Source: a virus
Virus record (IMG/VR): IMGVR_UViG_3300012271_000010
Location: 1-64,000 of that record
Reading direction: 5' to 3' (one strand)
Length of the DNA: 64,000 bases
The notes under the pieces were generated by a model, which saw only the letters and a list, made by a program, of their open reading frames with translations, had not been told where the DNA came from and ran no database searches. Every line of letters begins with the position of its first letter. The first letter of the stretch is position 1. Positions 985-14,744 of the stretch are shown here, in pieces. Position numbers and translations under genes: made by a program.

Positions 985-1013
985 TTGACAAAAGAGAAGT
1001 GATCTGTTAGGAT
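985..1013 (+). promoter_or_regulatory. sigma70-type promoter driving the tRNA array
   Basis: TTGACA-17 nt-TAGGAT with extended TG, 21 nt upstream of tRNA-Thr. Confidence 0.65.
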
Positions 1014-1034
1014 AGCTCTCACGAAAAAAAGAAT

Positions 1035-1119
1035 GCCGGGTTCGTATAGTGGACAATTACACCTGTTTTGTAATCAGGCGGCTCGACCTACGAGAGTTCG
1101 AATCTCTCACTCGGCTCCA
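1035..1119 (+). tRNA. tRNA-Thr(TGT), extended variable region
   Basis: gccgggt/actcggc acceptor, cctg..ttTGTaa..cagg anticodon arm, GTTCGAATC T loop, CCA. Confidence 0.85.
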
Positions 1120-1126
1120 ATTTTTT

Positions 1127-1424
1127 GGGGAATCTATGGAATCGATAAAGCAAGGAGGATAATTTACACAAGGAAGCCAGCCAACGAATGCTTTGATCAG
1201 CGTTGGAAAAAATAACTGCAAACGATAACATCGAACAGTTCGCTCCTATTGCTCTAGCAGCGTAGAAAGCCGGGTGTCAACTACCTCGGAACAGAAAGTT
1301 GAGAAAAGTGAGTGCGAGAAGAAAGAAAGAAGGATTTCAATATCCTAAAAATTGAATAACCTTGTAAGAAAGTAAATTATAGAAATTGTTTTAGACACCG
1401 GTTCGAATCCGGTATTCTCCACCA
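1127..1424 (+). ncRNA. ssrA: tmRNA, one-piece; tag peptide (A)ANDNIEQFAPIALAA
   Basis: ggggaat/attctcc acceptor with G3.U70, GAC + T arm + ACCA end; ataact-GCA resume codon at 1218, tag ORF ends TAG at 1265. Confidence 0.93.
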
Positions 1425-1503
1425 GGGCATAGCCCACGGGGTCACCGTAAGGTGGCTGACTGATTGCCGGATAAATCAGGATAAATAAGCCGGTCCTTGT
1501 TGT

Positions 1504-1579
1504 GCAGGATTAACTGAGATGGTTTTAGTGCTACCCTTACATGGTAGAAACGGGGGTTCGAATCCCTCATCCTGTACCA
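1504..1579 (+). tRNA. tRNA-Val(TAC)
   Basis: gcaggat/atcctgt acceptor, ctacc-ctTACat-ggtag, T arm, CCA. Confidence 0.9.
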
Positions 1580-1661
1580 GAGTGGATATTCGGCGGGACT
1601 GACTATCGTCCGGTTTTTTGTTTAGTCAACAGAGAATCCGAAACCACGCGTTTTAAAAAGG

Positions 1662-1690
1662 TTGACAGACTGTGAAGAGTGAGTTAAGGT
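1662..1690 (+). promoter_or_regulatory. sigma70-type promoter
   Basis: TTGACA-17 nt-TAAGGT upstream of ORF 1710. Confidence 0.5.
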
Positions 1691-1709
1691 CTAACGAAGA
1701 AAGGTATCC

Positions 1710-1961
1710 ATGAAAAGATGGTTAGTGACAGGAACGAATGAAAATGGTTTTATCTGGGTACTTGAATTTGTTGGCGACGAAAAACCAAATCGCGGGAGGA
1801 TAAATCACGCGTTTGCTTCGGAATATCCAGAACAATGGGAATTCGAACCAGAGATTAGAAAAATAAAAATTCGTGAGTTTACCGACGCCCCACCACACGC
1901 CACTCTTGGTCTTTCGCTTAAAAAAGGATTTAATTTAAATGGAGAAGAAATAGAATATTAA
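1710..1961 (+). CDS. Hypothetical protein
   Basis: 83 aa ORF with RBS, behind a promoter. Confidence 0.55.
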   Translation: MKRWLVTGTNENGFIWVLEFVGDEKPNRGRINHAFASEYPEQWEFEPEIRKIKIREFTDAPPHATLGLSLKKGFNLNGEEIEY

Positions 1962-1966
1962 AATAC

Positions 1967-2042
1967 GGTTATGAGTTGCGGATGGCGAGCAGCTTCATTG
2001 TCAATGAAATGGTAGTCGGTTCGATTCCGACCATGACCGCCA
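1967..2042 (+). tRNA. tRNA-Asp(GTC)
   Basis: ggttatg/catgacc acceptor, G73, ttca-ttGTCaa-tgaa, T arm, CCA. Confidence 0.85.
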
Positions 2043-2265
2043 GTCGTCCTGTCAACTCTGATATATATCATATTTAGAAAATATGATTAAGAGATTTTGT
2101 AAAAAGACAGGACAGGTAAAGAAGGTTCGCGACAGTCTTAGTAAGACGAAACGAAAGTCAGGAAAAGACTGCCTTCTTTACCAGGGACACGATGTAACAA
2201 CCGCCAAGTGGTGTGTCCTGGGTAATGCTAGTAGTTACAGAAATATGAGTCTGTCCAAATTGGGG

Positions 2266-2342
2266 GCGCCGCACGCATGCAGCGGTAGGAGCTTTCGAAT
2301 ACTCCATGGTTAAGTTAGGTTCGAATCCTAACAGGCGCACCA
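2266..2342 (+). tRNA. Atypical tRNA, probably Arg(TCG), with enlarged anticodon loop
   Basis: gcgcc/ggcgc acceptor, ggag/ctcc stem around ctttcgaata, gttagg-ttcgaat-cctaac T arm, CCA; irregular D arm. Confidence 0.5.
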
Positions 2343-2416
2343 GAGGCAGAAATATAGGTTCGAATCCTGTTGTCAACATTGTGTTGACCTCGTCTAACTG
2401 GTCAGGACGCTGCCGT
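2343..2416 (+). ncRNA. Circularly permuted tRNA-like RNA (3' half precedes 5' half; YrlA-like topology)
   Basis: Order is ggcag, T arm (atagg-ttcgaat-cctgt), gtcaaca-ttg-tgttgac closed acceptor, D arm (gtct-aactggtca-ggac), ctgcc. Confidence 0.75.
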
Positions 2417-2447
2417 TTTTTAAACTTCTTAAAGAAAAGGAACATAA

Positions 2448-2786
2448 ATGCCTTGTAAATCAGATCATATGGAAGCAGCCTCGGATGAAACCGAATCCCG
2501 ACGACTAGCTAATTTGGTTATGTACTTGAACGATTCTCTGGACATCACTACAAGTGAAGACATTAAAGAAGCTGCACACAGTTATTACGGGAATGTTAAG
2601 ATACTAGATTCTCTAACCGCATATACGTGTGGTAAGATTAAGCGGATGGACGAAGAAACTCTAAACAGGGTAGTTTACGACGGCAGAAACCCCACCGCCC
2701 GTCAATTAGCAGATTGGTATGAGCAACATGAGGCGTTTGACCGCCGACGCTTGCGAGAAGAAAAGAGAAGAAAAGTTAGTAAATAA
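2448..2786 (+). CDS. Hypothetical protein
   Basis: 112 aa ORF, AAGGA RBS. Confidence 0.7.
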   Translation: MPCKSDHMEAASDETESRRLANLVMYLNDSLDITTSEDIKEAAHSYYGNVKILDSLTAYTCGKIKRMDEETLNRVVYDGRNPTARQLADWYEQHEAFDRRRLREEKRRKVSK

Positions 2787-2901
2787 TGGAGAACCTACAT
2801 CTACAGGTTGTTACGATTGCAGAGGCACTGGTTTAAATTGTGAGAATTGTAATTCTTTAAAATAAAAAAGGTAGTAAATAATGGAGATTGATTTTACATA
2901 T

Positions 2902-2977
2902 GGGGAGGTAGCTGATGTGGTCTTAGCATGAATTTGAAGAATTTGAGATGTTGGTTCGATCCCGACCCTCCCCACCA
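2902..2977 (+). tRNA. tRNA-Phe(GAA)
   Basis: ggggagg/cctcccc, tgaat-ttGAAga-atttg, T arm, CCA. Confidence 0.85.
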
Positions 2978-2989
2978 TTAAATCATTTT

Positions 2990-3071
2990 GGCTATAGTGA
3001 ACGATGGACGTTCAGTGTCCTCATAAGGCATCGAGAAATCACCGCTGGTTCAATTCCAGCTATAGCTACCA
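2990..3071 (+). tRNA. tRNA-Met/Ile2(CAT), elongator-like, long variable region
   Basis: ggctata/tatagct, gtgtc-ctCATaa-ggcat, T arm, CCA. Confidence 0.8.
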
Positions 3072-3075
3072 TTGT

Positions 3076-3164
3076 GGCGGGGCGGAGACTGTTGGATGTC
3101 TCGTAGATCTCATAAGTCTATTTCCTCATGGAAGACGCATGTTCGATTCATGCCCCCGCACCCA
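3076..3164 (+). tRNA. tRNA-Met(CAT), initiator-like 1:72 mismatch, long variable arm
   Basis: ggcgggg/ccccgca (G1.A72), tagat-ctCATaa-gtcta, ttcc-tcat-ggaa variable hairpin, CCA. Confidence 0.75.
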
Positions 3165-3209
3165 TTTTAGAAAAAGAAAATTATGATTTTTGTTGCTTCA
3201 CTTTTGCTC

Positions 3210-3238
3210 TTGACACTTCACATCGTTCCTGGTATAGT
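3210..3238 (+). promoter_or_regulatory. sigma70-type promoter
   Basis: TTGACA-17 nt-TATAGT with extended TG, upstream of tRNA-Glu. Confidence 0.55.
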
Positions 3239-3333
3239 TTTTGCCGGATATACGCTGACAAGAGAAGTCGAAAATCGTATGTTATTAATTCGCAGCGGAC
3301 CAATGTCTGCTTGGTATAAGGAATAAAAAGTTT

Positions 3334-3408
3334 GGTGCCATCTTCTAGCGGCTAAGAAATCGGTTTTTCACATCGACAACTGGAGTTCGATTCTCCATGG
3401 CACTACCA
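3334..3408 (+). tRNA. tRNA-Glu(TTC)
   Basis: ggtgcca/tggcact, tcggt-ttTTCac-atcga, CCA. Confidence 0.88.
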
Positions 3409-3499
3409 AAAAGAGAAAATTATGTTTAAATGTATTAAAGATTATCCAAGCGAGCTTCAACAAGTTTACAACACACCCTTTTGTGTTGTTCGAAACTGA

Positions 3500-3574
3500 T
3501 GGAGCATCGTCTAACCGGTAGGACCTTCGACTTTGACTCGAAAAATATAAGTTCGAACCTTATTGCTCCAGCCA
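3500..3574 (+). tRNA. tRNA-Gln(TTG)
   Basis: tggagca/tgctcca, G73, ttcga-ctTTGac-tcgaa, CCA. Confidence 0.9.
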
Positions 3575-3604
3575 CTTTAAAAGATATCACAAAAGAGAAA
3601 AATT

Positions 3605-3925
3605 ATGAATAAGAATGTTGTTAATTTAAGCGATTTTAAAAAGAAAATGGCTCTAAAAGAGAAAATTGAGTCAGAGACTGAAGAAAAGTCATTGGCAGTC
3701 TTGACAGACGAGCAAATCGATCGTATCATGTACGCAACAATCAACGATCGCGAAGAAGATGAAGATCCCTCAGAAGAAGAGATGATTGCGGTTTTAGAGT
3801 GGGCTCAAACTACTATGGTGAGAGTCACATTCTTGAACTTAATGCTCAAGGGAAAAGTTTCCATCAAATGGGACGAAGATAAGAATTTTCTGTTTTCAGC
3901 TACTGAGGAATCCGAAGAAGAATAA
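3605..3925 (+). CDS. Hypothetical acidic protein
   Basis: 106 aa ORF between tRNAs. Confidence 0.65.
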   Translation: MNKNVVNLSDFKKKMALKEKIESETEEKSLAVLTDEQIDRIMYATINDREEDEDPSEEEMIAVLEWAQTTMVRVTFLNLMLKGKVSIKWDEDKNFLFSATEESEEE

Positions 3926-3933
3926 TAACTTAT

Positions 3934-4020
3934 GGAGAGTTGGCAGAGTCCGGCTGATTGCGCTAGTCTTGAAAACTAGAGGGCAGAGATGTCCCGAGGG
4001 TTCGAATCCCTCACTCTCTT
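3934..4020 (+). tRNA. tRNA-Ser(TGA)
   Basis: ggagagt/actctct, ctagt-ctTGAaa-actag, long variable arm; no encoded CCA. Confidence 0.9.
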
Positions 4021-4077
4021 TCAATTATGGTGAACAGTAGTAGTGGCTAACTTAACATTTTAATAAAAGGACTACAA

Positions 4078-4350
4078 ATGCCACTATTCAGAACTTTGCT
4101 TAATGATATGGAAAAAACTTTTGAAAGAGTGAAAGAGGCTGAATTTTTTAAGAAATATGGATTATGTCTTATATGCAAAGAAAGATCTGCAAGAGTTCAA
4201 AATCCACAAGTCACTAAAGAAGATATGATTTGTTTAGAATGTGAGGATAAGAGAGTCAACAAATTAACAACTGCGAGCCCAACTGGAACTCCAGTCTCAT
4301 TTTTCTCAAATGTTGTTGTTTATGATTATGAGCCGCTAGAAGAAGAGTAG
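4078..4350 (+). CDS. Hypothetical protein with two CxxC motifs (zinc finger)
   Basis: CLIC...CLEC; AAGGA RBS. Confidence 0.6.
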   Translation: MPLFRTLLNDMEKTFERVKEAEFFKKYGLCLICKERSARVQNPQVTKEDMICLECEDKRVNKLTTASPTGTPVSFFSNVVVYDYEPLEEE

Positions 4351-4356
4351 TGTTAT

Positions 4357-4431
4357 GCGTCGTCGGTCTCAATGGTGGGACATCAGCCTTCCAAGCTGAA
4401 TATCAGAAGGGTTCGATCCCCTTACGGCGCT
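4357..4431 (+). tRNA. tRNA-Gly(TCC)
   Basis: gcgtcgt/acggcgc, U73, tcagc-ctTCCaa-gctga; no encoded CCA. Confidence 0.85.
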
Positions 4432-4439
4432 TTACTTTT

Positions 4440-4517
4440 GCTGGTATATTTCAGTTAGGTCAGAATACTTTCTTGGTAAGAAAGAGGTCATTGGTTCAAA
4501 TCCAATTATCAGCTCCA
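4440..4517 (+). tRNA. tRNA-Thr(GGT)
   Basis: gctggta/tatcagc, ctttc-ttGGTaa-gaaag, CCA. Confidence 0.9.
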
Positions 4518-4542
4518 ATTTAACTTTAAACTAGAGGTAAAA

Positions 4543-4773
4543 ATGCCAGCTGAAAACAACACAATGGCTCAGTACAACATGGTCAAAGAGGCTTTTCTTG
4601 ATGCTCTGGTTAAGGACAACTTGATGAAGCAAGAAGTCGCAGACAGACTAAAAGAAACTTATGCGGTTGTTGTAACCCGCCGCTCTTGGCTCGGAAGGTT
4701 TATGGATAAACACATTTATAGCAAAGAAGAAGCTGATGAATTTAAGATTGTTATAATGCGGATTGTCAAATGA
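4543..4773 (+). CDS. Hypothetical protein
   Basis: 76 aa, GAGGT RBS, ATGA overlap with the next gene. Confidence 0.65.
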   Translation: MPAENNTMAQYNMVKEAFLDALVKDNLMKQEVADRLKETYAVVVTRRSWLGRFMDKHIYSKEEADEFKIVIMRIVK

Positions 4774-5114
4774 AAATACTTGTCTGTGGTGGTCGCGATT
4801 ATGATAATCGAGCTTATGTGTTTCAAGTTTTAGAAATGATTCATGAGGAAAATCCCATTACATGTGTCGTTCATGGTGCAGCCACCGGCGCAGATAGTCT
4901 AGGACAAGCCTGGGCGCTTTCTAAGGAGATTTCTGAGATTCCTTATCCTGCTGAATGGGACAAATTCAAACGAGCAGCAGGACCGATTAGAAACGCAAAG
5001 ATGCTTAGAGAAAATGAAGATATTGAGTTAGTTGTTGCATTTCCTGGTGGAAGTGGAACAGGAAATATGAGAATAAAAGCTGAAAGGGCAGGAATAGAAG
5101 TTATCTGTCTTTAA
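4770..5114 (+). CDS. SLOG-superfamily (YspA/DUF2493-like) protein
   Basis: LVCGGRDY, HGAATGAD, AGPIRN and FPGGSGT motifs. Confidence 0.85.
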   Translation: MKILVCGGRDYDNRAYVFQVLEMIHEENPITCVVHGAATGADSLGQAWALSKEISEIPYPAEWDKFKRAAGPIRNAKMLRENEDIELVVAFPGGSGTGNMRIKAERAGIEVICL

Positions 5115-5144
5115 TTTAAACGAAGAAAACAAAAGGAGAACAAT

Positions 5145-5381
5145 ATGTTTTTGGATAAAGAAGAAAAAGTGACGCAGAAACCTGGTAAATCATGGAAGAG
5201 TATCGTTTACCGTTCAACTTACGCTGAAGCTGATAAGTTCCGTAATGAAAAGTTGAAGGAAAAAGATTTGGATGTGAAGGTTAAATTTATGCCTTCAATG
5301 GACAAATTTGCAGTTAAGACGCGAAAAAAAGCCATTGTTGAATCCGAGACTGAACTAGTTAAAGATAACAAAGAGGGTTAA
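5145..5381 (+). CDS. Hypothetical basic protein
   Basis: 78 aa, AGGAG RBS. Confidence 0.6.
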   Translation: MFLDKEEKVTQKPGKSWKSIVYRSTYAEADKFRNEKLKEKDLDVKVKFMPSMDKFAVKTRKKAIVESETELVKDNKEG

Positions 5382-5384
5382 TTT

Positions 5385-6314
5385 ATGTCGAAATCGTACA
5401 AACTTGTTCTATCTGGGTCTGGTACTCGTTACCCATGTTTTATTGGAGCGGTAAAACGTCTCCTGGAAGAAGGTCTTGAAATAGAAGAGGTTTGTGGGAC
5501 CAGCGGCGGTGGAATTATTGCCGCTGGTCTTGGATGGAAGTATGATAAAGAAAATCCTCTTGATTCTATTAAATTTTTAGAAGATATGGCATTATCTCTT
5601 TTACCATCTGATTTGTTAGACCCTCATTGGTTTGATTTTGCTCTATCTTTTCGATGGAAGAATCTTTTCCACGGATATAACTTCAGTCCTCTGAATTTGT
5701 TTAGAAAAAATAAAGACGTCCTTACTCTTGATCCGAAGAAAATGGTTTTGACGAGAAACACTAACGGAATGTTTAAGGGTAATAAAATTCTTAAAGTTTT
5801 AGAGAAATCGCTGCCAGAAGATCTTGAATTGAAAATTCCAGTTGTTATTACAACATTCAATAACAACTGGAGAGTGGTAGATTTTTGGAAAAGAGAGAAA
5901 GGTAACACTGGTGATTTAGCAAAATTAGTTAGAGCTACTCTTTCTCTACCGATAATTTTTGATCCTGTTATGATTGAAGGAGACTTACATTCTGACGGTG
6001 GAAATATTGCTAATTTCCCACTTGATGTTTTTGGACGAGATGCTAAAGTTATTGGGTTGACATTCGAAGGAATGAATCCAACACGAGTAGTAATTGATGA
6101 TAAACTTGATATTGCTGGAGCCAATCTAGACGGTATGATGAACGCGTCAATGGAAGAAGATATCCACGACGCCGGTCCAAACGCCCATGTTTGTCAGATA
6201 CGCACTAGACACACTGGTCTCAACCTTATGATGACTCCTGCCGACGTCGCAGAACAAATACTCGACGGATATGACAGTGTGTCCCGGTGGCTCAAAGAAA
6301 ATCCAGATCTGTAA
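5385..6314 (+). CDS. Patatin-like phospholipase
   Basis: LVLSGSGTR oxyanion loop, GTSGG nucleophile elbow, DGG catalytic Asp. Confidence 0.88.
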   Translation: MSKSYKLVLSGSGTRYPCFIGAVKRLLEEGLEIEEVCGTSGGGIIAAGLGWKYDKENPLDSIKFLEDMALSLLPSDLLDPHWFDFALSFRWKNLFHGYNFSPLNLFRKNKDVLTLDPKKMVLTRNTNGMFKGNKILKVLEKSLPEDLELKIPVVITTFNNNWRVVDFWKREKGNTGDLAKLVRATLSLPIIFDPVMIEGDLHSDGGNIANFPLDVFGRDAKVIGLTFEGMNPTRVVIDDKLDIAGANLDGMMNASMEEDIHDAGPNAHVCQIRTRHTGLNLMMTPADVAEQILDGYDSVSRWLKENPDL

Positions 6315-6331
6315 AAAACTCTTTCAGACAC

Positions 6332-6360
6332 TTGACATCTTAACTTCGATGGGTTACACT
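6332..6360 (+). promoter_or_regulatory. sigma70-type promoter
   Basis: TTGACA-17 nt-TACACT upstream of tRNA-Ile. Confidence 0.6.
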
Positions 6361-6377
6361 GGTTCCAGAACGTATTT

Positions 6378-6452
6378 GCTCCCGCAGCATGACGGTCATG
6401 CGCGCTTCTTATAAGGGTAAAAATGTGGGTTCAATTCCCACCGGGAGTACCA
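6378..6452 (+). tRNA. tRNA-Ile(TAT)
   Basis: gctcccg/cgggagt, gcatgac-ggtcatgc D arm, ctTATaa loop on a weak G.U-rich stem, CCA. Confidence 0.75.
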
Positions 6453-6485
6453 AAGAAAGTGAACCATAAAAGAAAGTTGTAAATT

Positions 6486-6734
6486 ATGAGTGCAGTGAAA
6501 GTAGATTCCAAAACAGATCGTAAATACTTTATTCAATATTGTAAGGATTCGAATTGGATTTTTAGTCAACTTGATTCGGTTCAAGGTGGATTTGACCGGA
6601 CCTCTGATGCAGAGGCGGTAATTGACGATGTAATGGTTTTCCATAATGATTTCTCAGGATTTAATTATAGAATCCTTCAACGAACAACAATTATTCTTGA
6701 TGAACCACGTCAAGACTATAATAGTGGTTGGTAA
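6486..6734 (+). CDS. Hypothetical protein
   Basis: 82 aa ORF between tRNAs. Confidence 0.55.
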   Translation: MSAVKVDSKTDRKYFIQYCKDSNWIFSQLDSVQGGFDRTSDAEAVIDDVMVFHNDFSGFNYRILQRTTIILDEPRQDYNSGW

Positions 6735-6744
6735 AATTTAATGA

Positions 6745-6824
6745 GCGCTTGTATACCCTCCCGCTACGAACGGGTCGAAAGGTTAACTGGATACATGTGA
6801 GTTCGACTCTCCCCAAGCGTACCA
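6745..6824 (+). tRNA. Non-canonical tRNA-Arg(ACG) with split/re-threaded D arm
   Basis: gcgcttg/caagcgt + ACCA, cccg-ctACGaa-cggg, T arm; only tatacc between acceptor and anticodon arm; ggttaactggata lies 3' of the anticodon arm. Confidence 0.7.
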
Positions 6825-6842
6825 CCTTATACTACAATTTGT

Positions 6843-6915
6843 GCCCCGAGCAATGGATATGCAGGCAGGTCTTCTAAACCAGCCTTTCTAAGTTCGATTC
6901 TTAGTCGGGGTGCCA
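6843..6915 (+). tRNA. tRNA-Arg(TCT)
   Basis: gccccga/tcggggt, ggt-ctTCTaa-acc, short D arm gca-atggata-tgc, CCA. Confidence 0.75.
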
Positions 6916-7082
6916 TGTTCGGTAGTGTAATGGATTTCCGTAAAAAGGGTGGACTAGGACCCTGATTTGGAAAATCAATACCTGTGTAATGAGGAGCACG
7001 CACTTTTCATTATGTAGCAAAAATTGACGCACGCGCTTCTCATGAGAACGTAGAGGAGGTTCGATTCCTTCCTGAACAGCCA
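6916..7082 (+). ncRNA. tRNA-like RNA (CAT anticodon) with ~95-nt structured insertion in the D loop
   Basis: tgttcgg/ctgaaca + GCCA; D stem gtgt(6925)/gcac(7029); cgctt-ctCATga-gaacg; ggagg-ttcgatt-ccttc T arm. Confidence 0.7.
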
Positions 7083-7387
7083 TTTCAAAAGGAAAAGATA
7101 ATGCCAAGTTTTTCTAGAGAATTTTTAGACGAGTCCCGCCGACGGTGCTTAAAAGAAAATGGAGGATTTGATGATGCATTCTTCCGATGTTTAGCAGAGA
7201 CCCAAGCTATTGTTGATGCTTTAGAAGAAGAGCTTGCCATTGAACGACCTGTTCTAGAAGCGGGTAAGGCTAACGCCAAGAATCGCAAGACAAAAGAAAA
7301 AGATGACTAGAAAAGAAGACTTTGATGGTATCATATGGTTGATAGCCTCTGTAGTACCATATGTTTTGTATATGATTTATCACTTTA

Positions 7388-7448
7388 GCTCTCTCTAGAG
7401 GAGCTAGATAAAGCCGATGAAACAGTTCGATTCTGTTAGAGAGCACCA
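7388..7448 (+). ncRNA. Mini tRNA-like RNA lacking a normal anticodon arm
   Basis: gctctct/agagagc + ACCA, aacag-ttcgatt-ctgtt T arm, only 26 nt in between. Confidence 0.7.
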
Positions 7449-7471
7449 CCACCAAAAAAAGGATTGATTTA

Positions 7472-7693
7472 ATGACTAAAAACGAAGTTCTAAAACTTAC
7501 TAAAGATTTCACTCATCGTTCACCTGGCATGCCCGGCGATAAATGGATTGAAATTTCTTTTAATGAGGAAGACAACACTTCAAAAGAACCAGAAAATATT
7601 GAAGAATATTTTAAAAAGTTGCTCGGTCCAAAAGCAAAATTTGAGGTTTATGAGATGCTCGACGACACTATAGTATGTGTTAACTATAGATAA
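7472..7693 (+). CDS. Hypothetical protein
   Basis: 73 aa ORF, AAGGA RBS. Confidence 0.55.
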   Translation: MTKNEVLKLTKDFTHRSPGMPGDKWIEISFNEEDNTSKEPENIEEYFKKLLGPKAKFEVYEMLDDTIVCVNYR

Positions 7694-7748
7694 ATTGGTC
7701 AGCATTGTTGCAGAGATCAAGCAGGTGTTGCTTGTAAAGGGGTAATAG

Positions 7749-8135
7749 ATGAGTTGTTTCTTTATTAGTGGGCATGGAGATCTAACTTTAGAAGAGTTTG
7801 AGGAACATTATCATCCAATGATAGAAAAAGCTTTATCAGAAGATGGTTGGTTTGTCATCGGCGATTACAAAGGAGCTGATACTATGGCAAATAAGTTTCT
7901 TTCAGATTATCTTTTTTTCAATAAAAGTATGTTTCCTTATACCGAAGTAATAGTTTATCATGTCGGCGACAAGCCAAGAAACAACCCAGGAAGATTTGAA
8001 ACTTTTCCTGGGTTTTCTTCAGATGAAGAACGCGACGCTACTATGACTAGGCATAGTTCAGTTGATATAGCCTGGGTGAGACCTGGTAGGGAGAATTCAG
8101 GCACCGCCAGAAACATTGCTCGCAGAAAGGCTTGA
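7749..8135 (+). CDS. Hypothetical protein, probable SLOG-like fold
   Basis: FISGH, IGDYKGAD, RDxxM and SGTxxN motifs. Confidence 0.6.
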   Translation: MSCFFISGHGDLTLEEFEEHYHPMIEKALSEDGWFVIGDYKGADTMANKFLSDYLFFNKSMFPYTEVIVYHVGDKPRNNPGRFETFPGFSSDEERDATMTRHSSVDIAWVRPGRENSGTARNIARRKA

Positions 8136-8160
8136 CACATATTTCCAAACCTGTTAGGAT
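8132..8160 (+). promoter_or_regulatory. sigma70-type promoter overlapping the upstream TGA stop
   Basis: TTGACA-17 nt-TAGGAT with extended TG. Confidence 0.6.
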
Positions 8161-8166
8161 ACTTAT

Positions 8167-8721
8167 ATGATTACAACAATGAGTTTTAAAGCCGGAACCG
8201 ACCCTTGCCCTACTGTATCTTGGGGAGGAAATTATTCCAACGAACAACTTCAAGATGGTATTGAAAAGCTGGTAAGTTTTTGTGCATCTAAGGGAGTGGA
8301 AGTTCGTTTTGGAACGAGAGAGAGATGCAGTCATGCGATCGGCTTAAAGCTAATCACGATGAACAGTAGACTTTCTTTAAAGAAATTGTACCATGTTTTG
8401 CTACACGAAAGCGGACATGTTGTGATTAATCAAGATATGATTTCTGAAGAAGACCATACTGAATATCTTCTTAATTATCCTGGAAATGTAAACAAAAATA
8501 CAGAAGCATACATTGCTGAGGGTGACAACGAACATAAGTTGACAAAGAAAGATCATCGACGCTATATGGTTAGTCTCATTCATGAAGAATGTGACGCATG
8601 GCGCAAAGGTTTGGATATTGCAGCGATGTTGGAGCTTCCTTTGAATTTGTATGATTTTTATTCTGATGCAACAACTGGAATTGAATCTTATATTCTAGCA
8701 GCTGCCCAATCGAGGTCTTAA
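8167..8721 (+). CDS. HExxH zinc-metallopeptidase-like protein
   Basis: LLHESGH plus downstream EExxAW. Confidence 0.65.
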   Translation: MITTMSFKAGTDPCPTVSWGGNYSNEQLQDGIEKLVSFCASKGVEVRFGTRERCSHAIGLKLITMNSRLSLKKLYHVLLHESGHVVINQDMISEEDHTEYLLNYPGNVNKNTEAYIAEGDNEHKLTKKDHRRYMVSLIHEECDAWRKGLDIAAMLELPLNLYDFYSDATTGIESYILAAAQSRS

Positions 8722-8979
8722 ATGTCATTTTTCTCTAAACGTCGTACTTCTCGTATGTTTACTTTTGGAAAAGTTGGAAGTAAAAGTGGGCTGATTTTTG
8801 TCTTAGCTAAAGATGGTGTTTGGGATATCACAAGTGAAAAAACCGGAGCCCATTCTGTAAGGTTTGGTATTACTACTCAGAAAAAAGAAGATTGTAGTTT
8901 TTATTCTTTTTTTATTGGTCCCTTGGCAATAATGCTGAACGTACCGAAAAAAGTGCTTGACAAAGAAGAAAAGAAGTAG
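8722..8979 (+). CDS. Hypothetical protein
   Basis: 85 aa ORF abutting the previous gene. Confidence 0.5.
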   Translation: MSFFSKRRTSRMFTFGKVGSKSGLIFVLAKDGVWDITSEKTGAHSVRFGITTQKKEDCSFYSFFIGPLAIMLNVPKKVLDKEEKK

Positions 8980-8985
8980 TAAGAT
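8957..8985 (+). promoter_or_regulatory. sigma70-type promoter
   Basis: TTGACA-17 nt-TAAGAT. Confidence 0.55.
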
Positions 8986-9155
8986 ACTAGTTAAGAAACA
9001 CTGGAAGAAATTCTGGTTTGAGGATTTATAATGTTTACATCAAAATTGTATAATAAATCGAATATTAACGGCTACAATAATTTGTGGGATAGCCATTTAT
9101 ATGCACTCAAACCAAGCTTGTTAGCCTAATTTCTCTAGAATCCATTAAAATTTAT

Positions 9156-9233
9156 TGTAGTTGAACCGACCGGGTGTCGGTGCCGAGCTGTTAACTCGGA
9201 ATAAGGTAGGTTCGAGTCCTACAACTACAGCCA
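9156..9233 (+). tRNA. tRNA-Asn(GTT)
   Basis: tgtagtt/aactaca, G73, ccgag-ctGTTaa-ctcgg, CCA. Confidence 0.88.
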
Positions 9234-9253
9234 TTTAAAAGAAAGAAGAGAAA

Positions 9254-9397
9254 ATGATTGATTTCATCTTGAGAAAGATTAGAAAGAGAATTGAGCCAAA
9301 AAATATGTGTGATTCTTGTACAAGGAAGTATACATGCCAGACCAAAAGTGGTAAGATGCTCTGTGAACGATGTTATAAAAGGGAATTAAATGTCTAA
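9254..9397 (+). CDS. Small Cys-rich zinc-finger protein (47 aa, below the ORF-track cutoff)
   Basis: MIDFILRKIRKRIEPKNMCDSCTRKYTCQTKSGKMLCERCYKRELNV, read manually. Confidence 0.45.
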   Translation: MIDFILRKIRKRIEPKNMCDSCTRKYTCQTKSGKMLCERCYKRELNV

Positions 9398-10583
9398 ATC
9401 GGAAACAAAGCGATGCGCTATATGTGGAAATACGAATTCTAGGAAAGGTAAGACGCAGTTTTGTTCAACCAAGTGTTATTTAGAGTCTAATAGAAGTGTA
9501 AAGAAATGTGAAGTTTGTAAAAAAGAATATTCTTATATATCTTTTTATGAAAAAAGGACGTGTTCTAGAAAATGCGGAGCTAAAATAAATGCTTCATGTT
9601 ATCAAAAAGACCCAAAAACATGGGTAACGACAAAATGCAATATTTGCAATAAAGATTTTGATGTACGAATCAAAAGGTTGAAGAGGACCAAGAACGTGTT
9701 ATGCAGCACTAAATGTTCTGCGGAATTTAGATCTATTAACTTTAATCATGATCGGATATTGAATCACTATTCTGGATTCTTTTCATCTCTTAAATCAGGA
9801 GGTGAAAAGAAAATTAGATTTGATTCCTCTTGGGAATTGAGAAGGTTTAAAGAATTAGAATTTGATCCAAAAGTCATTCTATGGGATAGATGTCAAGATA
9901 AAATACTTTGGTATGATTCTGACAATAAAAAGCATCATTATAATCCAGATATTTATATTGAGTACGAAGACGGTAAAAGAGTAGTGGAAGAAATTAAAGG
10001 ATTCATGAATGAAGAATCTAAATTAAAAATTGAAGCTGGCGAAGAGTTTTACGACAGAACAGAAATATTATTTCGGGTAATAGATAATAAGAATATCTTA
10101 TTTGATAAAAAACTTGAATATAAAACAGAAGAGTATGAAAATGATTATGGAATATTTAATCGACTTAAAATGGAATATATTTGGATGTCTCTAGCAATTA
10201 TGTTAGCAAGCAAATCTACTTGTTCTCGATTAAAAGTAGGTTCAGTTATAACCGATTCTGGCATGAATAGAGCACTTTGTGTTGGATATAATGGAGATGA
10301 AAAAGGGGGCAAAAACCAGTGTGAAAGTTTAAAACCAGGAAAATGTGGTTGTTTGCATGCTGAAACTAACGCGATAGCGAAATCCCGCGAATCACTAGAA
10401 AATTGTATCTTATTCGTAACAACAGCACCTTGCAAATCTTGCGTTAAGTTGATTATTAACTCAGGTATAAGAGAAGTAATATATAATGAAGTTTATAGGG
10501 ACACTAGTGGACTCAAATTGATGAAACAGCGTGGTCTTAAAGTAACACGTTTTAGCAAAATTGAAGATGATACCCTTCTTTAG
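9390..10583 (+). CDS. Fusion: CxxC zinc-repeat region + TnsA/gp4-like PD-(D/E)xK endonuclease + dCMP deaminase
   Basis: Repeated CxxC...CSxxC; SSWE...YNPDIYI...EEIKG; C-terminal STC-KVG, GYNG, HAETNAI, PCKSC deaminase motifs. Confidence 0.8.
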   Translation: MSKSETKRCAICGNTNSRKGKTQFCSTKCYLESNRSVKKCEVCKKEYSYISFYEKRTCSRKCGAKINASCYQKDPKTWVTTKCNICNKDFDVRIKRLKRTKNVLCSTKCSAEFRSINFNHDRILNHYSGFFSSLKSGGEKKIRFDSSWELRRFKELEFDPKVILWDRCQDKILWYDSDNKKHHYNPDIYIEYEDGKRVVEEIKGFMNEESKLKIEAGEEFYDRTEILFRVIDNKNILFDKKLEYKTEEYENDYGIFNRLKMEYIWMSLAIMLASKSTCSRLKVGSVITDSGMNRALCVGYNGDEKGGKNQCESLKPGKCGCLHAETNAIAKSRESLENCILFVTTAPCKSCVKLIINSGIREVIYNEVYRDTSGLKLMKQRGLKVTRFSKIEDDTLL

Positions 10584-10586
10584 GGC

Positions 10587-10614
10587 TTGACTTACTGAGA
10601 AAACGTGGTATAGT
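10587..10614 (+). promoter_or_regulatory. sigma70-type promoter
   Basis: TTGACT-16 nt-TATAGT with extended TG. Confidence 0.5.
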
Positions 10615-10640
10615 GGTTAGACAAGAAAACGGAGGCGGAG

Positions 10641-11279
10641 TTGAAGATAGTGGCAATTAGCGATACTCACAATCAACTTCGTAACATTAAGGTTCCCCAT
10701 GGTGATGTCCTGATCCATGCTGGCGATTTCACAATGAATGGAACCGCCAACGAAATTCGTGAGTTTAATCATGAGCTTAGTCTCTTATCTCACGCACATA
10801 AAATTGTGATTGCAGGCAATCACGATATAAATTTTGAAATGGAACCGGTTGAATCTAGAAAATTACTAACTAATGCAATTTATCTAGAAGATAGTGGAGT
10901 TGAAATCGGAGGAGTAAAGTTTTGGGGTTCACCCTGGCAGCCACAGTTTTATGATTGGGCTTTCAACCTTGAACGAGGTTTGCCTTTGAAAGAAAAGTGG
11001 CAACAGATTCCATCTGATACAGATGTTCTTATTACTCACGGACCTCCAAAGGAAATCCTTGACGAAGCACCCCGAAAGGGAATTTTGAATTATTTGAATG
11101 TTGGTTGTAAAGATTTGAGAGAAGAGGTTCTGTATAGAATCCAACCAAAATATCATGTCTTTGGACACATTCACAATGGATACGGTTATAAGTCTTTTGG
11201 AAACATTAATTTTATCAACGCATCTATTTTGAACGAGAGATACAAAATCGAAAATAAGCCTATTATTTTCAACATTTAA
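10641..11279 (+). CDS. Calcineurin-like metallophosphoesterase (MPPED-like)
   Basis: SDTH, HAGD, GNHD, THGPP and GHIH motifs; TTG start with GGAGG RBS. Confidence 0.9.
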   Translation: MKIVAISDTHNQLRNIKVPHGDVLIHAGDFTMNGTANEIREFNHELSLLSHAHKIVIAGNHDINFEMEPVESRKLLTNAIYLEDSGVEIGGVKFWGSPWQPQFYDWAFNLERGLPLKEKWQQIPSDTDVLITHGPPKEILDEAPRKGILNYLNVGCKDLREEVLYRIQPKYHVFGHIHNGYGYKSFGNINFINASILNERYKIENKPIIFNI

Positions 11280-11365
11280 AGGAAGAATTAAAATGAAAAA
11301 CTACGCAAAACGAAAACATAAACGATAGGGCTGGGATGTGCCCGTTGAAACATCCCACACCATGT

Positions 11366-11443
11366 GGGTTTGTAGTATAACGGATGTATTATACTCGGCT
11401 CTTAACCGATGAGATTTGGGTTCGAATCCCAACAGACCCACCA
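11366..11443 (+). tRNA. tRNA-Lys(CTT)
   Basis: gggtttg/cagaccc, tcgg-ctCTTaa-ccga, CCA. Confidence 0.88.
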
Positions 11444-11446
11444 CAT

Positions 11447-11522
11447 GGGTTGTTAGTTCAATTGCGTAGAACATGTGGCTTTTAACCATTCAATCCGAGT
11501 TCGAGTCTCGGACAACCCACCA
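11447..11522 (+). tRNA. tRNA-Lys(TTT)
   Basis: gggttgt/acaaccc, gtgg-ctTTTaa-ccat, CCA. Confidence 0.88.
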
Positions 11523-11553
11523 ATTTTGAGAAGAAAATAGATTTTTGAGTTTT

Positions 11554-11826
11554 TGTTCGTGCTGCCGTCGTTTGGATAGCTGGCAGCCACTTGCACCGAA
11601 AGAAGTCTCAGCTGAACCTGCGAATCGAAAGTGAAGCGGGGAGAAAGATGACTTGAGGTTTGAGGTTCGATAGGAGGGGCGTCGCTGCCCCAAAAATGTG
11701 CCTCGCGCGTGGTGAGTTCTTGATAGTAGGAAAAGGTGTACTGAGAATGCACTAAAGTACAAAATCATAGCCCTGTCAGTCTCAGACAGAGCGAAAAGAC
11801 TTAGGGTTCAATCCCCTACACGAACA
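11554..11826 (+). ncRNA. Unidentified 273-nt structured RNA with tRNA-like 8-bp acceptor and T arm
   Basis: tgttcgtg/cacgaaca ends, taggg-ttcaatc-cccta T arm, GC-rich multi-hairpin interior in an AT-rich genome. Confidence 0.65.
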
Positions 11827-11851
11827 TTTTTTATTTGGAGAAGAAAAAAAC

Positions 11852-12469
11852 ATGAGTGACAAATTACTTGGAAAAATGATCAAAGAGTTGACTGAAAACA
11901 ATATCAGTATAAAATTTGTAAACAAAAGTACTCTTGAAGATGATAGTCCAATGTTGGGGTTTTTCTGTGAATTGGATAAATTAATCGAAGTAGGAACTCT
12001 CGACGACGGCTGGTTTCAGACTTTCGCTCATGAATATTGTCACTTTAAACAGTGGAAAGATGGTCTCTTTGACGATATAACAACAATAGCTGCATATGCC
12101 ACATTAGATAATTGGGTGGACAGGAACAGAGAACTACCATCAGAAACAGTAAAGAAATTTATCCGTTGCATGCAGTTTATTGAATGGGACAATGAAAAAC
12201 GTACAATTGAATTTCTTGATAAAAACAAAATTGATTATGACAGAGAAGCTTATGTTAAGAAAGCTAACGTTTATGTTGCTTCTCATGAATTAACAAGACG
12301 TATTAGACGATGGCAAAGTAAACCATTGAGTACTGTTCCCGGAGTAAGTGATTTATTTTCAGGGGAAGAAATGATGCTAGAAAGAGATTTTGGGAATCTC
12401 CCAGAAGGTTTTGAAGCATTAGCAATTTCATCTTTTGAAGAAGTTATCGTTGAGGAAGAAGAGGATTAA
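11852..12469 (+). CDS. HExxH zinc-metallopeptidase-like protein
   Basis: FAHEYCH motif with a downstream E. Confidence 0.6.
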   Translation: MSDKLLGKMIKELTENNISIKFVNKSTLEDDSPMLGFFCELDKLIEVGTLDDGWFQTFAHEYCHFKQWKDGLFDDITTIAAYATLDNWVDRNRELPSETVKKFIRCMQFIEWDNEKRTIEFLDKNKIDYDREAYVKKANVYVASHELTRRIRRWQSKPLSTVPGVSDLFSGEEMMLERDFGNLPEGFEALAISSFEEVIVEEEED

Positions 12470-12514
12470 AATGGACTATTATTATTATAAGATTAGACAT
12501 ACCCATATCAACAT

Positions 12515-12603
12515 GGGAGACTTTCCTCGCGGTTGGCTGTAAACCAATTACCATAATAAGCGGGGTGGACGGTGAGAAGGTTCAATTCCTTAGTCTCCCA
12601 CCA
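12515..12603 (+). tRNA. Non-canonical tRNA-Tyr(GTA) with split/re-threaded D arm
   Basis: gggagac/gtctccc + ACCA, gttgg-ctGTAaa-ccaat; cctcgc (5' of anticodon arm) pairs with gcgggg (3' of it), followed by tggacggt and the T arm. Confidence 0.7.
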
Positions 12604-12624
12604 AATTAAACCGATTATGTGTAT

Positions 12625-12713
12625 GGTGGCTGTGCTGGAAATGGTAGACAGGCTGGGCTGTGAACCCGGTGTTTGATAAAGACGTGCGAGTTCGAAGCTC
12701 GTCAGTCACCCCA
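12625..12713 (+). tRNA. tRNA-His(GTG) with class-II-like long variable arm
   Basis: G-1/C73, gtggctg/cagtcac, ctggg-ctGTGaa-cccgg, tgttt..agacg variable hairpin, CCA. Confidence 0.85.
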
Positions 12714-12738
12714 ATTCAAAAAACACACTTAGGAAGAA

Positions 12739-12945
12739 ATGAAAGTAGGAACAAGAGTAAAAGTTATTTGTTCATGTTGTCAAAATGGAGCATGGACTCT
12801 TTTGGAACAAGAAGGAATAATTTACAAAGATTTTAATACTGCTTATTGCGAAGACCTCACGGTGACACAAAATCTCTACGGCATCAGATTCGACGACAAG
12901 ACCGAGGGATCCTTCTGGACAAAACAGATTGAGGTGTTATACTGA
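12739..12945 (+). CDS. Small SH3/KOW-like hypothetical protein
   Basis: MKVGTRVKV N-terminus typical of small phage beta-barrels. Confidence 0.5.
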   Translation: MKVGTRVKVICSCCQNGAWTLLEQEGIIYKDFNTAYCEDLTVTQNLYGIRFDDKTEGSFWTKQIEVLY

Positions 12946-13115
12946 TGTTCTACTGGCTCTCGACAACGAAGATGACTGTGATGGTGGAAACCGATGAAAA
13001 CGATATTCTCATTGAAGCAGCACCAATAGTAAGAAGATTCTTGGGACAGACGATAGAAGACCTTGCAATGTGGATGAACAGACAAGAAGGTTTTAAAATA
13101 GAGGAGTTAAATTGA

Positions 13116-13307
13116 ATGGAATACGAAAAAGGTGATCTGATGAAACATAATGATGGTTCATTGGGAATTATTACTAAAGTAAGCACCTACCGTTATCAAA
13201 TCTCTTGGTTTGAAGAACGTACGTTAACCAATCTCAGTTATACCTGGATTAATAAAAATATTTCAAAGAAATACCTTCCAGTGTGTATTAGTCGAACAAA
13301 GTTGTGA
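13116..13307 (+). CDS. Small SH3/KOW-like hypothetical protein
   Basis: KGDL...GII pattern; GAGGAG RBS. Confidence 0.5.
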   Translation: MEYEKGDLMKHNDGSLGIITKVSTYRYQISWFEERTLTNLSYTWINKNISKKYLPVCISRTKL

Positions 13308-13314
13308 AAGTTAT

Positions 13315-13401
13315 GGGGATGTGGTGGAACTGGTTTACACAGCAGGCTTAAAACTTGTAGCCCGCGAGGGCTTGTGGGTTCGAATCCCACCATCCCTACC
13401 A
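13315..13401 (+). tRNA. tRNA-Leu(TAA)
   Basis: ggggatg/catccct, gcagg-ctTAAaa-cttgt, agccc/gggct variable arm, CCA. Confidence 0.92.
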
Positions 13402-13405
13402 TTTT

Positions 13406-13483
13406 AGGTTAGTAGAGAATTGGTATATCGAGGGGATTCAAACTTCCCTGTCTATGTGGGTTCGAGTCCCACCTAACCTACCA
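13406..13483 (+). tRNA. tRNA-Leu(CAA), short variable region
   Basis: aggttag/ctaacct, gggga-ttCAAac-ttccc, CCA. Confidence 0.8.
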
Positions 13484-13498
13484 TTTTAAGAGGAATAA

Positions 13499-14035
13499 AT
13501 GAAGAGAACAATCTTGTGCTTGCTAGCACTACTTATAAATGCTAGTTGTTTCTATCTACCAGTTTCAATACCTGATGGTGGAGTTGGAACAATTAGTGAT
13601 GCAGGAACAGGACAAAGATTAGGAGATTTAGATGCAGGTGAGACAAATGATTCTGGAAACCCTCAAACAGACAGCGGTATCATCATCGATCTTGATGGCG
13701 GCGTTTTCGTGGACGCTGGTAATGAAGATGACGCTGGATTTATTGCAGGCGACGCAGGTTTGGTAGACTCTGGACCATTTGACTCTGGGATTTTTGATGG
13801 AGGTTTGTTTGATTCTGGAATCTTCGAGTTTGATGCTGGCTTTGTAGACGCTTCTGTGATTATTGACGCAGGAACAGAAATTGTAGATGCTTCTATTGAA
13901 ATTGATGCCGGAGAAGAATGCGAAGATACTCATGGACATCATGGATACGGTAGTTGGAATGAACCTGAGCCAAGTTGGAATGAACCAGAATCGGAATGTC
14001 CAGATGAATCGGAGCACGAATGGTGGGAGAATTGA
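13499..14035 (+). CDS. Acidic D-[AGS]-G repeat lipoprotein
   Basis: Signal peptide with lipobox-like NASC; many DAG/DSG/DGG triplets; C-terminal SWNEPE repeat. Confidence 0.7.
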   Translation: MKRTILCLLALLINASCFYLPVSIPDGGVGTISDAGTGQRLGDLDAGETNDSGNPQTDSGIIIDLDGGVFVDAGNEDDAGFIAGDAGLVDSGPFDSGIFDGGLFDSGIFEFDAGFVDASVIIDAGTEIVDASIEIDAGEECEDTHGHHGYGSWNEPEPSWNEPESECPDESEHEWWEN

Positions 14036-14315
14036 TTAAAAAAGGTCAACTTTTAAAAGTTATACGTTGTACGTTTGAAAGTACCGTCACCGCCGAAACG
14101 CGCGGCACCGAAACACCGGTGTTCCCCGCCCACTACCGCGTCGCCGACGACGTCGACGGTCTTAAATTTCTTGATATAGGAACACTGCTGATTGTGACCA
14201 GGGAACAAAGTGACACCAATATTGGGATCGAAGCTTACAACCCAAAAACAAATAGAACTATTTTTGTACCGATGAACGATGTTATTAAACTTTAGCTTAA
14301 AAAAAAGGTAGTTAT

Positions 14316-14389
14316 ATTCCAGAGCGTAGGTTGTGTCGACCGATCTCCAAAATCGTGTTGTGAGAGTTCGAATCTCTCCTGGTTTGCCA
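14316..14389 (+). tRNA. Degenerate tRNA-Trp(CCA)
   Basis: cgat-ctCCAaa-atcg, gagag-ttcgaat-ctctc, G73-CCA; acceptor and D arm imperfect, 5' end uncertain. Confidence 0.55.
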
Positions 14390-14392
14390 ATT

Positions 14393-14563
14393 ATGATAAT
14401 ATGTGTTTGCAATAATTTAAACGAGCAAGAAATCCAAACAGCAATTTCAGGCGGATGTAAAACAGCTTCAGAAGTTTGGGAATTTCATAAGTGCAGAGGA
14501 AGATGTACCAAGTGCGTTCCTGAAATCGAAGAAAGTATTGAAAATGAAAAAGATAGAACTTAA
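14393..14563 (+). CDS. Bfd-like [2Fe-2S] ferredoxin
   Basis: MIICVCNN...CTKC (CxC...CxxC); start set at ATG 14393 after the tRNA. Confidence 0.8.
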   Translation: MIICVCNNLNEQEIQTAISGGCKTASEVWEFHKCRGRCTKCVPEIEESIENEKDRT

Positions 14564-14744
14564 ACTAGGTGAACTGGTCACAGCTTGTGGAAACGGAGCC
14601 GCCGCCAGCCGAAAATTTGGAATTTTGATTAAAGTAGTGGATGAAGAAGACGGCGACACTTGGTATGACGCAAATGTCTATTGGGTAGGTAAATATCCTC
14701 GTTTTGAGAGGGTGTGTCTCTCTTATCTAAGAAAAATAACTTGA
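14538..14744 (+). CDS. Small SH3/KOW-like hypothetical protein
   Basis: LKLGELV...FGI pattern. Confidence 0.5.
   Translation: MKMKKIELKLGELVTACGNGAAASRKFGILIKVVDEEDGDTWYDANVYWVGKYPRFERVCLSYLRKIT

Follow-up and report, generated by a model that had tools for sequence, protein, structure and literature searches.

The window analyzed here comprises the first 64 kb (64,000 nt) of a virus record from IMG/VR (IMGVR_UViG_3300012271_000010, or G000), which holds 72,110 bases and is estimated to be about 40% complete. Within a tRNA cluster on the + strand of this window (positions 1,000 to 16,000), we found that the stretch 6916-7082 is a real tRNA(CAU)-derived gene of 167 nt, the D loop of which is interrupted by a 94-nt insert of duplicative origin. 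The reading that we favor, with moderate confidence, is that this phage tRNA(CAU)-type gene keeps its duplicative insert in a 167-nt tRNA-like RNA and is under relaxed constraint.

The gene lies on the + strand and contains every arm of a cloverleaf. It begins with the 5′ strand of the acceptor stem (TGTTCGG, 6916-6922), followed by U8 and A9 (6923-6924), and it ends with the 3′ strand (CTGAACA, 7072-7078), the discriminator G7079, and an encoded CCA (7080-7082). The two acceptor strands pair at all seven positions, with one G-U pair. The D stem is formed by GTGT (6925-6928) and GCAC (7029-7032, with G26 at 7033) and is likewise fully paired (4/4). Its 5′ strand is followed by AATGGA (6929-6934), the start of the D loop, which in our reading against the standard tRNA scheme is numbered A14, A15, U16, G18, G19, and A20. 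The insert of about 94 nt starts 1 nt after G18-G19 and ends 1 nt before the 3′ strand of the D stem. The anticodon arm (CGCTT, CTCATGA, and GAACG, 7034-7050) has U33, the anticodon CAU, and G37 in its loop; its stem forms four of five pairs, with a C-A mismatch at 7036/7048, and the arm contains the 12-nt palindrome TTCTCATGAGAA. A 4-nt variable loop (TAGA, 7051-7054) and the T arm (GGAGG TTCGATT CCTTC, 7055-7071) complete the molecule. Set beside a canonical tRNA, the gene has a 7-bp acceptor stem with discriminator and CCA, a T arm of the TTCRANY form, and a 7-nt anticodon loop with U33. In contrast, the D arm departs from the canonical form, because its GTGT/GCAC stem encloses a loop of 100 nt (6929-7028) instead of about 7 to 11 nt. 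An earlier note on this DNA had described a cloverleaf with a GCCA end, D-stem strands at 6925-6928 and 7029-7032, an insert after G18-G19, an imperfect anticodon arm (CAT, G37), and two hairpins within the insert. We found the parts of the cloverleaf at these places, with a C-A mismatch in the anticodon stem, and both hairpins emerged from the RNA fold of the insert.

The intact gene was not called by ARAGORN, with or without the intron option, and it gave no match to the Rfam tRNA model (RF00005) either at the gathering score or at E ≤ 10. These missing calls would fit the explanation that there is no gene at all, only a 3′ tRNA fragment lying by chance next to unrelated upstream sequence. 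However, in silico deletion of the insert led ARAGORN to call a tRNA-Met(CAT) with ends at 6916 and 7082 for 81 of 221 constructs. Furthermore, a pattern for the 5′ half (an acceptor strand complementary to 7072-7078, 2 nt, and a D-stem strand complementary to 7029-7032) matched solely at 6916 when both strands of the window were searched, while random sequence of the cluster's composition yielded 7 matches per 5 Mb, or about 0.0006 per 450 nt. A stricter version, which additionally included U8, A14, and GG, had 0 matches in random sequence. The 5′ half is thus statistically tied to the 3′ half, beyond chance. The gene also starts exactly where its neighbor stops: the tRNA-like gene before it (element 2, 6843-6915, +) closes with its own CCA at 6915, which abuts base 1 at 6916. 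Element 2 is Arg(UCU)-like, with the anticodon loop CTTCTAA, a shortened D region, the T arm CTAAG TTCGATT CTTAG, the acceptor stem GCCCCGA/TCGGGGT, and a GCCA end, and it too was uncalled by ARAGORN and Rfam. Together, these data practically refute a chance juxtaposition, which we regard as extremely improbable.

The origin of the insert is indicated by 6984-7010 (+; GTGT AATGAGGA GCAC G CACTT TTCAT), a diverged internal copy of the exon sequence that runs in the same gene from the D arm through position 26 and the 5′ strand of the anticodon stem to the anticodon (tRNA positions 10 to 36). A repeat search found the direct repeat GTGTAATG at 6925-6932 and again at 6984-6991 (8/8), as well as 87% identity between GCACGCACTTTTCAT (6996-7010) and GCACGCGCTTCTCAT (7029-7043). 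Local alignment of the insert with the insert-deleted tRNA gave a score of 37, with 23 identities in 25 aligned columns and a 2-nt gap; none of 2000 dinucleotide shuffles reached this score (mean 15.5, maximum 29). Because the D arm of the internal copy is unsplit (GTGT AATGAGGA GCAC), it shows how the gene looked before the split. The rest of the insert (6935-6983 and 7011-7028) does not resemble the exons. Across G000, the related phage G001, and three further phage contigs (L008, L009, and L011), the insert is single-copy, and blastn of 6916-7082 against 50,697 phage records (E ≤ 1) returned no match to it. Since the insert is in part a copy of the gene that carries it, its origin lies in local duplication or repair rather than in a mobile intron or a foreign cargo. 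On sequence grounds, we conclude that the insert is the product of a local duplication or repair event, the exact path of which is not reconstructable from one sequence.

When 6932-7028 was folded alone, two hairpins filled the D loop almost exactly and left AAUGG free. The first, SL1 (6935-6973, +), consists of an outer stem (TTTCCG/TGGAAA), an inner stem (AGGGT/ACCCT), and the 8-nt loop GGACTAGG. The second, SL2 (6975-7027, +), has a closing stem (TCAAT/ATTGA), a 14-pair stem (TGTGTAATGAGGAG/CTTTTCATTATGTA) with five G-U pairs, and the loop CACGCA; its 14-pair stem arises mostly from the decayed copy, which pairs both internally and with the six bases that follow. The fold of the insert reached -26.3 kcal/mol on the + strand (z -2.9, with 1 of 200 shuffles as good) and -18.9 kcal/mol on the - strand (z -1.6). 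For SL1, taken from the fold of 6933-6978, we obtained -14.4 kcal/mol (z -2.7, 2/200 shuffles as good), and for SL2 alone -12.4 kcal/mol (z -2.0, 13/200), its reverse strand having a z of -0.4. The insertion site belongs to the variable D-loop pocket around position 20, which faces solvent in tRNA structures, and an accident of this kind therefore need not destroy the tRNA fold. No promoter or terminator was found within the insert.

We then compared the gene among strains. Contigs from the salt-lake runs X2 (6300-7092), X5 (6439-7092), and X17 (6727-7092) contain the whole gene with its insert and show at most one difference over these spans, while a contig from a fourth run, X12, covers the gene from 6953. 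The only strain differences listed lie downstream, at 7345-7403, beside a 205-nt indel (7093-7297). In X12, a 9-nt tandem duplication (CTCATGAGA) sits in the anticodon loop, behind 7038 (one contig, depth 3.6). Because the four strains are near-identical, they cannot show selection either way and offer no covariation. As a separate observation, 7093-7297, which makes up most of a 69-codon open reading frame (ORF; 7101-7310), is skipped in all four run contigs, with 7092 joined to 7298 and 7 nt of letters in common at the joint.

Several properties of the gene are pointers to relaxed constraint. The phage has two further CAU tRNAs as well as a tRNA-Ile(UAU), and both the G37 beside a CAU anticodon and the C-A mismatch in the anticodon stem are unusual. 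The cloverleaf built from the exons alone has -12.6 kcal/mol, which is 7.7 kcal/mol above the minimum free energy (MFE) fold; among the 20 called tRNAs of the cluster, the median gap is 3.7, and just two have one as large as 7.7. With the insert in place, the cloverleaf with its hairpins is less stable than the MFE fold by 7-9 kcal/mol, the pair probability of the D stem is about 0.014, and the D-stem 5′ strand pairs with the insert linker in the MFE fold. The 9-nt duplication in the X12 contig is a further pointer of this kind.

Searches for homologues of the interrupted gene yielded few relatives. DNA patterns, both exact and degenerate, for the T arm with acceptor strand and for the anticodon arm retrieved 0 stretches each, and a pattern for an uninterrupted D arm to anticodon retrieved 0 stretches in viral contigs and 0 in genome contigs. 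With blastn of 6300-7600 and of 6916-7082 against the phage collection, only element 1, a neighboring tRNA-like gene described below, was matched (2 Microbacterium phage records). Searches anchored on the proteins of the patatin gene, of ORF82, and of an ORF with HNH and dCMP deaminase parts identified one true relative, G001, and one distant record, L013 (39% identity), which has no tRNA matches. A DNA search of G001 with 6740-7082 found nothing, but it was insensitive, as it also missed the element 1 that is present there. The Rfam tRNA model gave 91 matches on five related or context records, and no other long D-loop insert was seen among about 110 tRNA or tRNA-like genes examined. We considered a third CAU tRNA of G001 (20133-20207) as an insert-less orthologue. 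It has U1-A72, G2-C71, G37, and a 4-nt variable loop in common with the interrupted gene, and its D stem is GTGT/GCAT; however, its identity to the exons is only 48/73 (rank 6 of 83), and we do not claim orthology.

Two other genes of G001 bear on the question of inserts. The initiator-like tRNA(CAU) at 19993-20087 (L002 2255-2349) has a 28-nt D loop with a hairpin (GGGTG CTAAAA CACCC) just after GG, and ARAGORN, which gives 0 calls for the intact gene, reports tRNA-Met for 112 of 192 constructs with in silico deletions. In its window counterpart (3076-3164), the D loop is normal and an additional hairpin lies in the variable arm. The second, a tRNA-like gene at about 25002-25111 (L002 7264-7373), encodes no CCA, and its anticodon loop holds an insert of 34 nt that comprises two hairpins. 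It is the only Rfam tRNA match longer than 95 nt (108 nt; 34.8 bits), and ARAGORN with introns describes it as tRNA-Leu(tag) with a 34-nt intron. Its product would have to lose this insert before it could decode. A short tRNA-like element with an odd T loop (about 25116-25200) directly follows it.

An intervening sequence would offer one explanation for a tRNA gene of this shape: either an unknown endonuclease or self-cleavage would release the 94 nt, and an RtcB-type ligase would join the halves into a tRNA(CAU) of about 73 nt. The clean tRNA obtained after in silico deletion agrees with this, the incompleteness of the record leaves room for it, and G001 encodes an RtcB (423 bits, 26592-27677, L016) inside its tRNA cluster, about 1.5 kb downstream of the tRNA-like gene with the 34-nt anticodon-loop insert. 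However, phage RtcB is ordinarily explained as tRNA repair, and the window stretch matching the RtcB region of G001 contains no RtcB, with one of its five ORFs common to G001. In G000 as a whole, RtcB and the RNA ligase family PF09414 are absent, and the splicing endonuclease family PF01974 is absent from both G000 and G001. Around the two junctions, none of 672 registers formed a strict 3-4-3 bulge-helix-bulge (BHB), defined by a 4/4 paired central helix and two flanking helices each paired 2/2, and the four relaxed matches did not yield a tRNA. Neither a ribozyme nor an intron family of Rfam, nor any other Rfam family, overlapped the insert at E ≤ 10; this includes the group I model RF00028, which scored 58.8 bits on the positive control, the group I intron in a tRNA gene of L011. 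The statement of the earlier note that the insert is not a group I or group II intron agrees with these results, while its suggestion of a non-canonical intron gained no support, given that a strict BHB, a splicing endonuclease in G000 or G001, and an RtcB in the 72-kb record were all lacking. The insert is, moreover, a self-copy and not a mobile element. Judging by its phage tmRNA, sigma-70-like promoters, and VanY D-Ala-D-Ala carboxypeptidase domain, the virus looks bacterial, so the host would be a bacterium, and we know of no non-group-I tRNA splicing in bacteria. We therefore regard an intervening sequence as quite unlikely, and it is improbable that an unrecognised endonuclease or self-cleavage together with an RtcB-type ligase, like that of the G001 tRNA cluster, provides protein-dependent, non-group-I splicing at a non-canonical D-loop position in a bacterial virus. 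If true, such D-loop splicing would also explain the tRNA-like gene with the anticodon-loop insert in the relative.

The insert could also be retained in a molecule that works, either as a tRNA or as a carrier. In the former case, the 167-nt RNA would be charged and would translate, with the hairpins as an expansion segment of the D loop. The fully canonical exon features, the two closed hairpins that leave AAUGG free, the hairpin of about 16 nt at the same site of the initiator-like tRNA in G001, the extra variable-region hairpins of several cluster tRNAs, and the identity of the gene in three other runs are all consistent with such an expanded tRNA. Its self-copy origin, on the other hand, argues for accident and not design. 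RNase P and the ribosome contact the tRNA elbow next to G19-C56, and 94 nt near the elbow may clash with both. The cloverleaf is weak and competes with the fold that pairs the D-stem 5′ strand with the insert linker, G37 with CAU together with the C-A mismatch is unusual, the X12 variant breaks the anticodon loop, and conservation was seen in no homologue; only near-identical strains were found. A functional expanded tRNA thus appears unlikely. In the latter case, which the earlier note had raised as a scaffold carrying cargo, the hairpins, chiefly SL1, would have a role of their own, for instance by binding a protein or acting as a decoy, and the tRNA frame would stabilize and process them. 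In favor of this, the sequence of SL1 is unique and its fold significant (z -2.7), the structure depends on the strand and contains many G-U pairs, and the stable RNA RNAC, encoded in the tRNA cluster of phage T4 and equipped with a T arm, would be comparable. However, half of the supposed cargo is the tRNA's own duplicated sequence: 27 nt (6984-7010) copy its D arm to anticodon and form most of the 14-pair hairpin. We found no second copy or relative of SL1 in G000, G001, L008, L009, L011, or the 50,697 phage records, and fold z-scores of -2 to -3 are modest. A scaffold with cargo is therefore very unlikely in our estimate.

Given the self-copy, an accident would be the simplest reading, and our favored explanation of a duplicative insert retained under relaxed constraint can be set out as follows. 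A local duplication or repair event would have split the D loop just after G18-G19-A20 by about 94 nt. The insert would combine a unique 49-nt piece (SL1) with a decayed copy of the D arm to anticodon, which together with the next bases forms SL2. Transcription would cover the gene along with the remainder of the + strand cluster, RNase P would cut between 6915 and 6916, after the CCA of element 2, and the encoded CCA at 7082 would provide the mature 3′ end. The insert would probably never be removed, and the resulting 167-nt RNA would have an acceptor/T-arm minihelix, an anticodon arm, and two hairpins emerging from the variable pocket of the D loop. We judge the gene to be a paralogue under relaxed constraint that is at best a poor decoder, with an insert that has no function of its own.

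A number of observations weigh against this explanation. Both hairpins fold better on the + than on the - strand, which could reflect selection on RNA structure, and the exons have kept all their canonical features whereas the internal copy degenerates past the anticodon, which could reflect selection on the exons. As the contigs X2, X5, and X17 carry the insert, it is fixed in the population, and the anticodon-loop variant of X12 rests on a single contig with a depth of 3.6. The smaller hairpin at the same D-loop site of a G001 tRNA suggests that this site may tolerate insertions. Since element 1 covaries, odd tRNA-like genes in this cluster are not necessarily dead. Last, the record is about 40% complete, and an excision system could therefore lie in the missing part.

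Element 1 (6745-6824, +) is a conserved non-canonical tRNA-Arg(ACG)-like gene missed by ARAGORN. Its homologues, at L002 7105-7184, L008 7213-7292 (-), L009 3678-3757, and L011 6067-6146 (-), score 25.3-27.3 bits, below the Rfam gathering threshold. Only 8 nt separate the acceptor and anticodon stems, 21 nt follow the anticodon arm, and base pairs are possible between an invariant TATACC and GGT...ATA, with TAAYTGG bulged out. The arrangement looks as if the D-stem 3′ strand and the D loop had moved to the variable region. Across five phage contigs, 99.1% of cells are paired and nine pairs, located in the acceptor, anticodon, and T stems, show changes of both partners, while the core is invariant. 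As judged from this pattern, element 1 can be taken as clearly functional and under selection.

Besides element 1, five tRNA-like elements, each with a T arm, an acceptor stem, and NCCA, were uncalled by ARAGORN and Rfam, all on the + strand. In addition to element 2, these are a mini element of 61 nt with an acceptor stem, a T arm, and one small hairpin (7388-7448), a Tyr(GUA)-like element in which the D arm is replaced and a 26-nt region follows the anticodon arm (12515-12603), a Trp(CCA)-like element with a weak acceptor stem (14316-14389), and a possible Arg(UCG)-like element that overlaps a small ORF (about 2266-2342). If the five elements are counted with the called tRNAs, nearly every amino acid would be served, Ala and Cys being the exceptions. 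ARAGORN also draws long variable regions for tRNA-Thr(UGU) (1035-1119), tRNA-Met(CAU) (2990-3071 and 3076-3164), and tRNA-His(GUG) (12626-12713), all on the + strand, and those of 3076-3164 and of the tRNA-His form a stem-loop. Class-II-like variable arms are not expected for Thr, Met, and His tRNAs in bacteria. The tRNA at 3076-3164 has a G1-A72 mismatch and is initiator-like.

Within the cluster, ARAGORN identified 20 tRNAs and one tmRNA, and Rfam at the gathering score 15 tRNAs and the tmRNA. The tmRNA gene (1127-1424, +) has the tag ANDNIEQFAPIALAA, and that of the relative G001 has the tag ANDNVEQFAPIALAA. The cluster also includes the ORF 9390-10583 (+), in which the N-terminal part of an HNH/TnsA-like endonuclease is joined to a dCMP deaminase domain. 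A putative sigma-70-like promoter (TTGACA, 17 nt, TACACT; 6332-6360, +), assigned by consensus only with 10 of 12 positions matching, is the closest promoter-like site 5′ of tRNA-Ile(UAU), ORF82, element 1, element 2, and the interrupted gene; sigma-70-like sites in the region number 4, as compared to 3.5 expected. The 24 metagenome runs listed with near-identical DNA come from salt lakes or lakes, and none is recorded as RNA.

For a tRNA gene of bacterial type, a long structured insert in the D loop is an unusual and rare architecture. The self-copy gives a concrete picture of a tRNA gene rearranged by local duplication with every canonical element kept. Should the RNA be produced and adopt a tRNA fold, it would reveal how large an RNA load the variable D-loop pocket can hold, a point of relevance to tRNA engineering. 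The wider cluster context may matter more than the interrupted gene alone: because the cluster is full of tRNAs missed by standard finders, at least one of which is conserved in several phages through compensatory changes, tRNA counts in such phages are too low.

To our knowledge, every known interruption of a tRNA gene in bacteria or their phages is an anticodon-loop intron, usually of group I and in rare cases of group II. Such group I introns resemble the present case in that a tRNA gene in a phage tRNA cluster is interrupted; however, they lie in the anticodon loop, measure about 200 nt, and have a group I core, whereas here 94 nt without an RF00028 match lie in the D loop. Two phage tRNA genes among the compared contigs, at L011 4081-4373 (-) and L008 242-525 (-), have anticodon-loop introns of about 200 nt, the one in L011 being assigned to Intron_gpI (58.8 bits). 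Listings and abstracts yielded no paper on D-loop inserts in phage tRNAs, which is no proof that none exists. For archaea and a red alga, the parts of the literature consulted describe D-arm introns and BHB-dependent disrupted tRNA genes (PMC9602550, PMC3978253). These likewise interrupt a tRNA gene in the D region and leave it complete in other respects, and they require the BHB together with its endonuclease. For the phage gene, no strict BHB was found, nor a PF01974 member in G000 or G001, and it further differs in the bacterial hallmarks of the virus and in the exon copy within its insert.

Closest in kind to the interrupted gene are the small stable RNAs RNAC and RNAD of phage T4 (species 1 and 2 RNA), the roles of which are unknown (PMC3014915, PMC9697503). 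Like the interrupted gene, they are encoded in a phage tRNA cluster and are longer than a tRNA (119-139 nt, as compared to 167 nt here). RNAC folds with a T-arm hairpin (CCGGG UUCGAAU CCCGG), paired 5′ and 3′ ends, and long internal hairpins, so that acceptor-like paired ends next to a T arm, inside a tRNA cluster, are found in both. Our blastn of 6916-7082 against the phage records revealed no similarity to RNAC or RNAD, and the interrupted gene differs from them in keeping a full D stem, a 7-nt CAU anticodon loop, and an encoded CCA. A tmRNA, one of which is encoded 5.8 kb upstream in the same cluster, also combines an acceptor/T-arm domain with a large internal domain. However, tmRNA has no anticodon arm and contains a tag frame and pseudoknots, while the interrupted gene keeps its anticodon arm, and the ARAGORN tmRNA search and RF00023 matched 1127-1424 only and not the interrupted gene. 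A tmRNA-like reading of the insert was rejected, as its mini-ORFs (6930-6965, 11 codons, and 6990-7028, 12 codons) have no tag-like end and are taken as chance. Last, engineered tRNA scaffolds for recombinant RNA use a tRNA frame in which extra structured RNA replaces the anticodon arm; in contrast, the phage gene keeps its anticodon arm and holds the extra RNA, which is largely copied from the gene, in the D loop.

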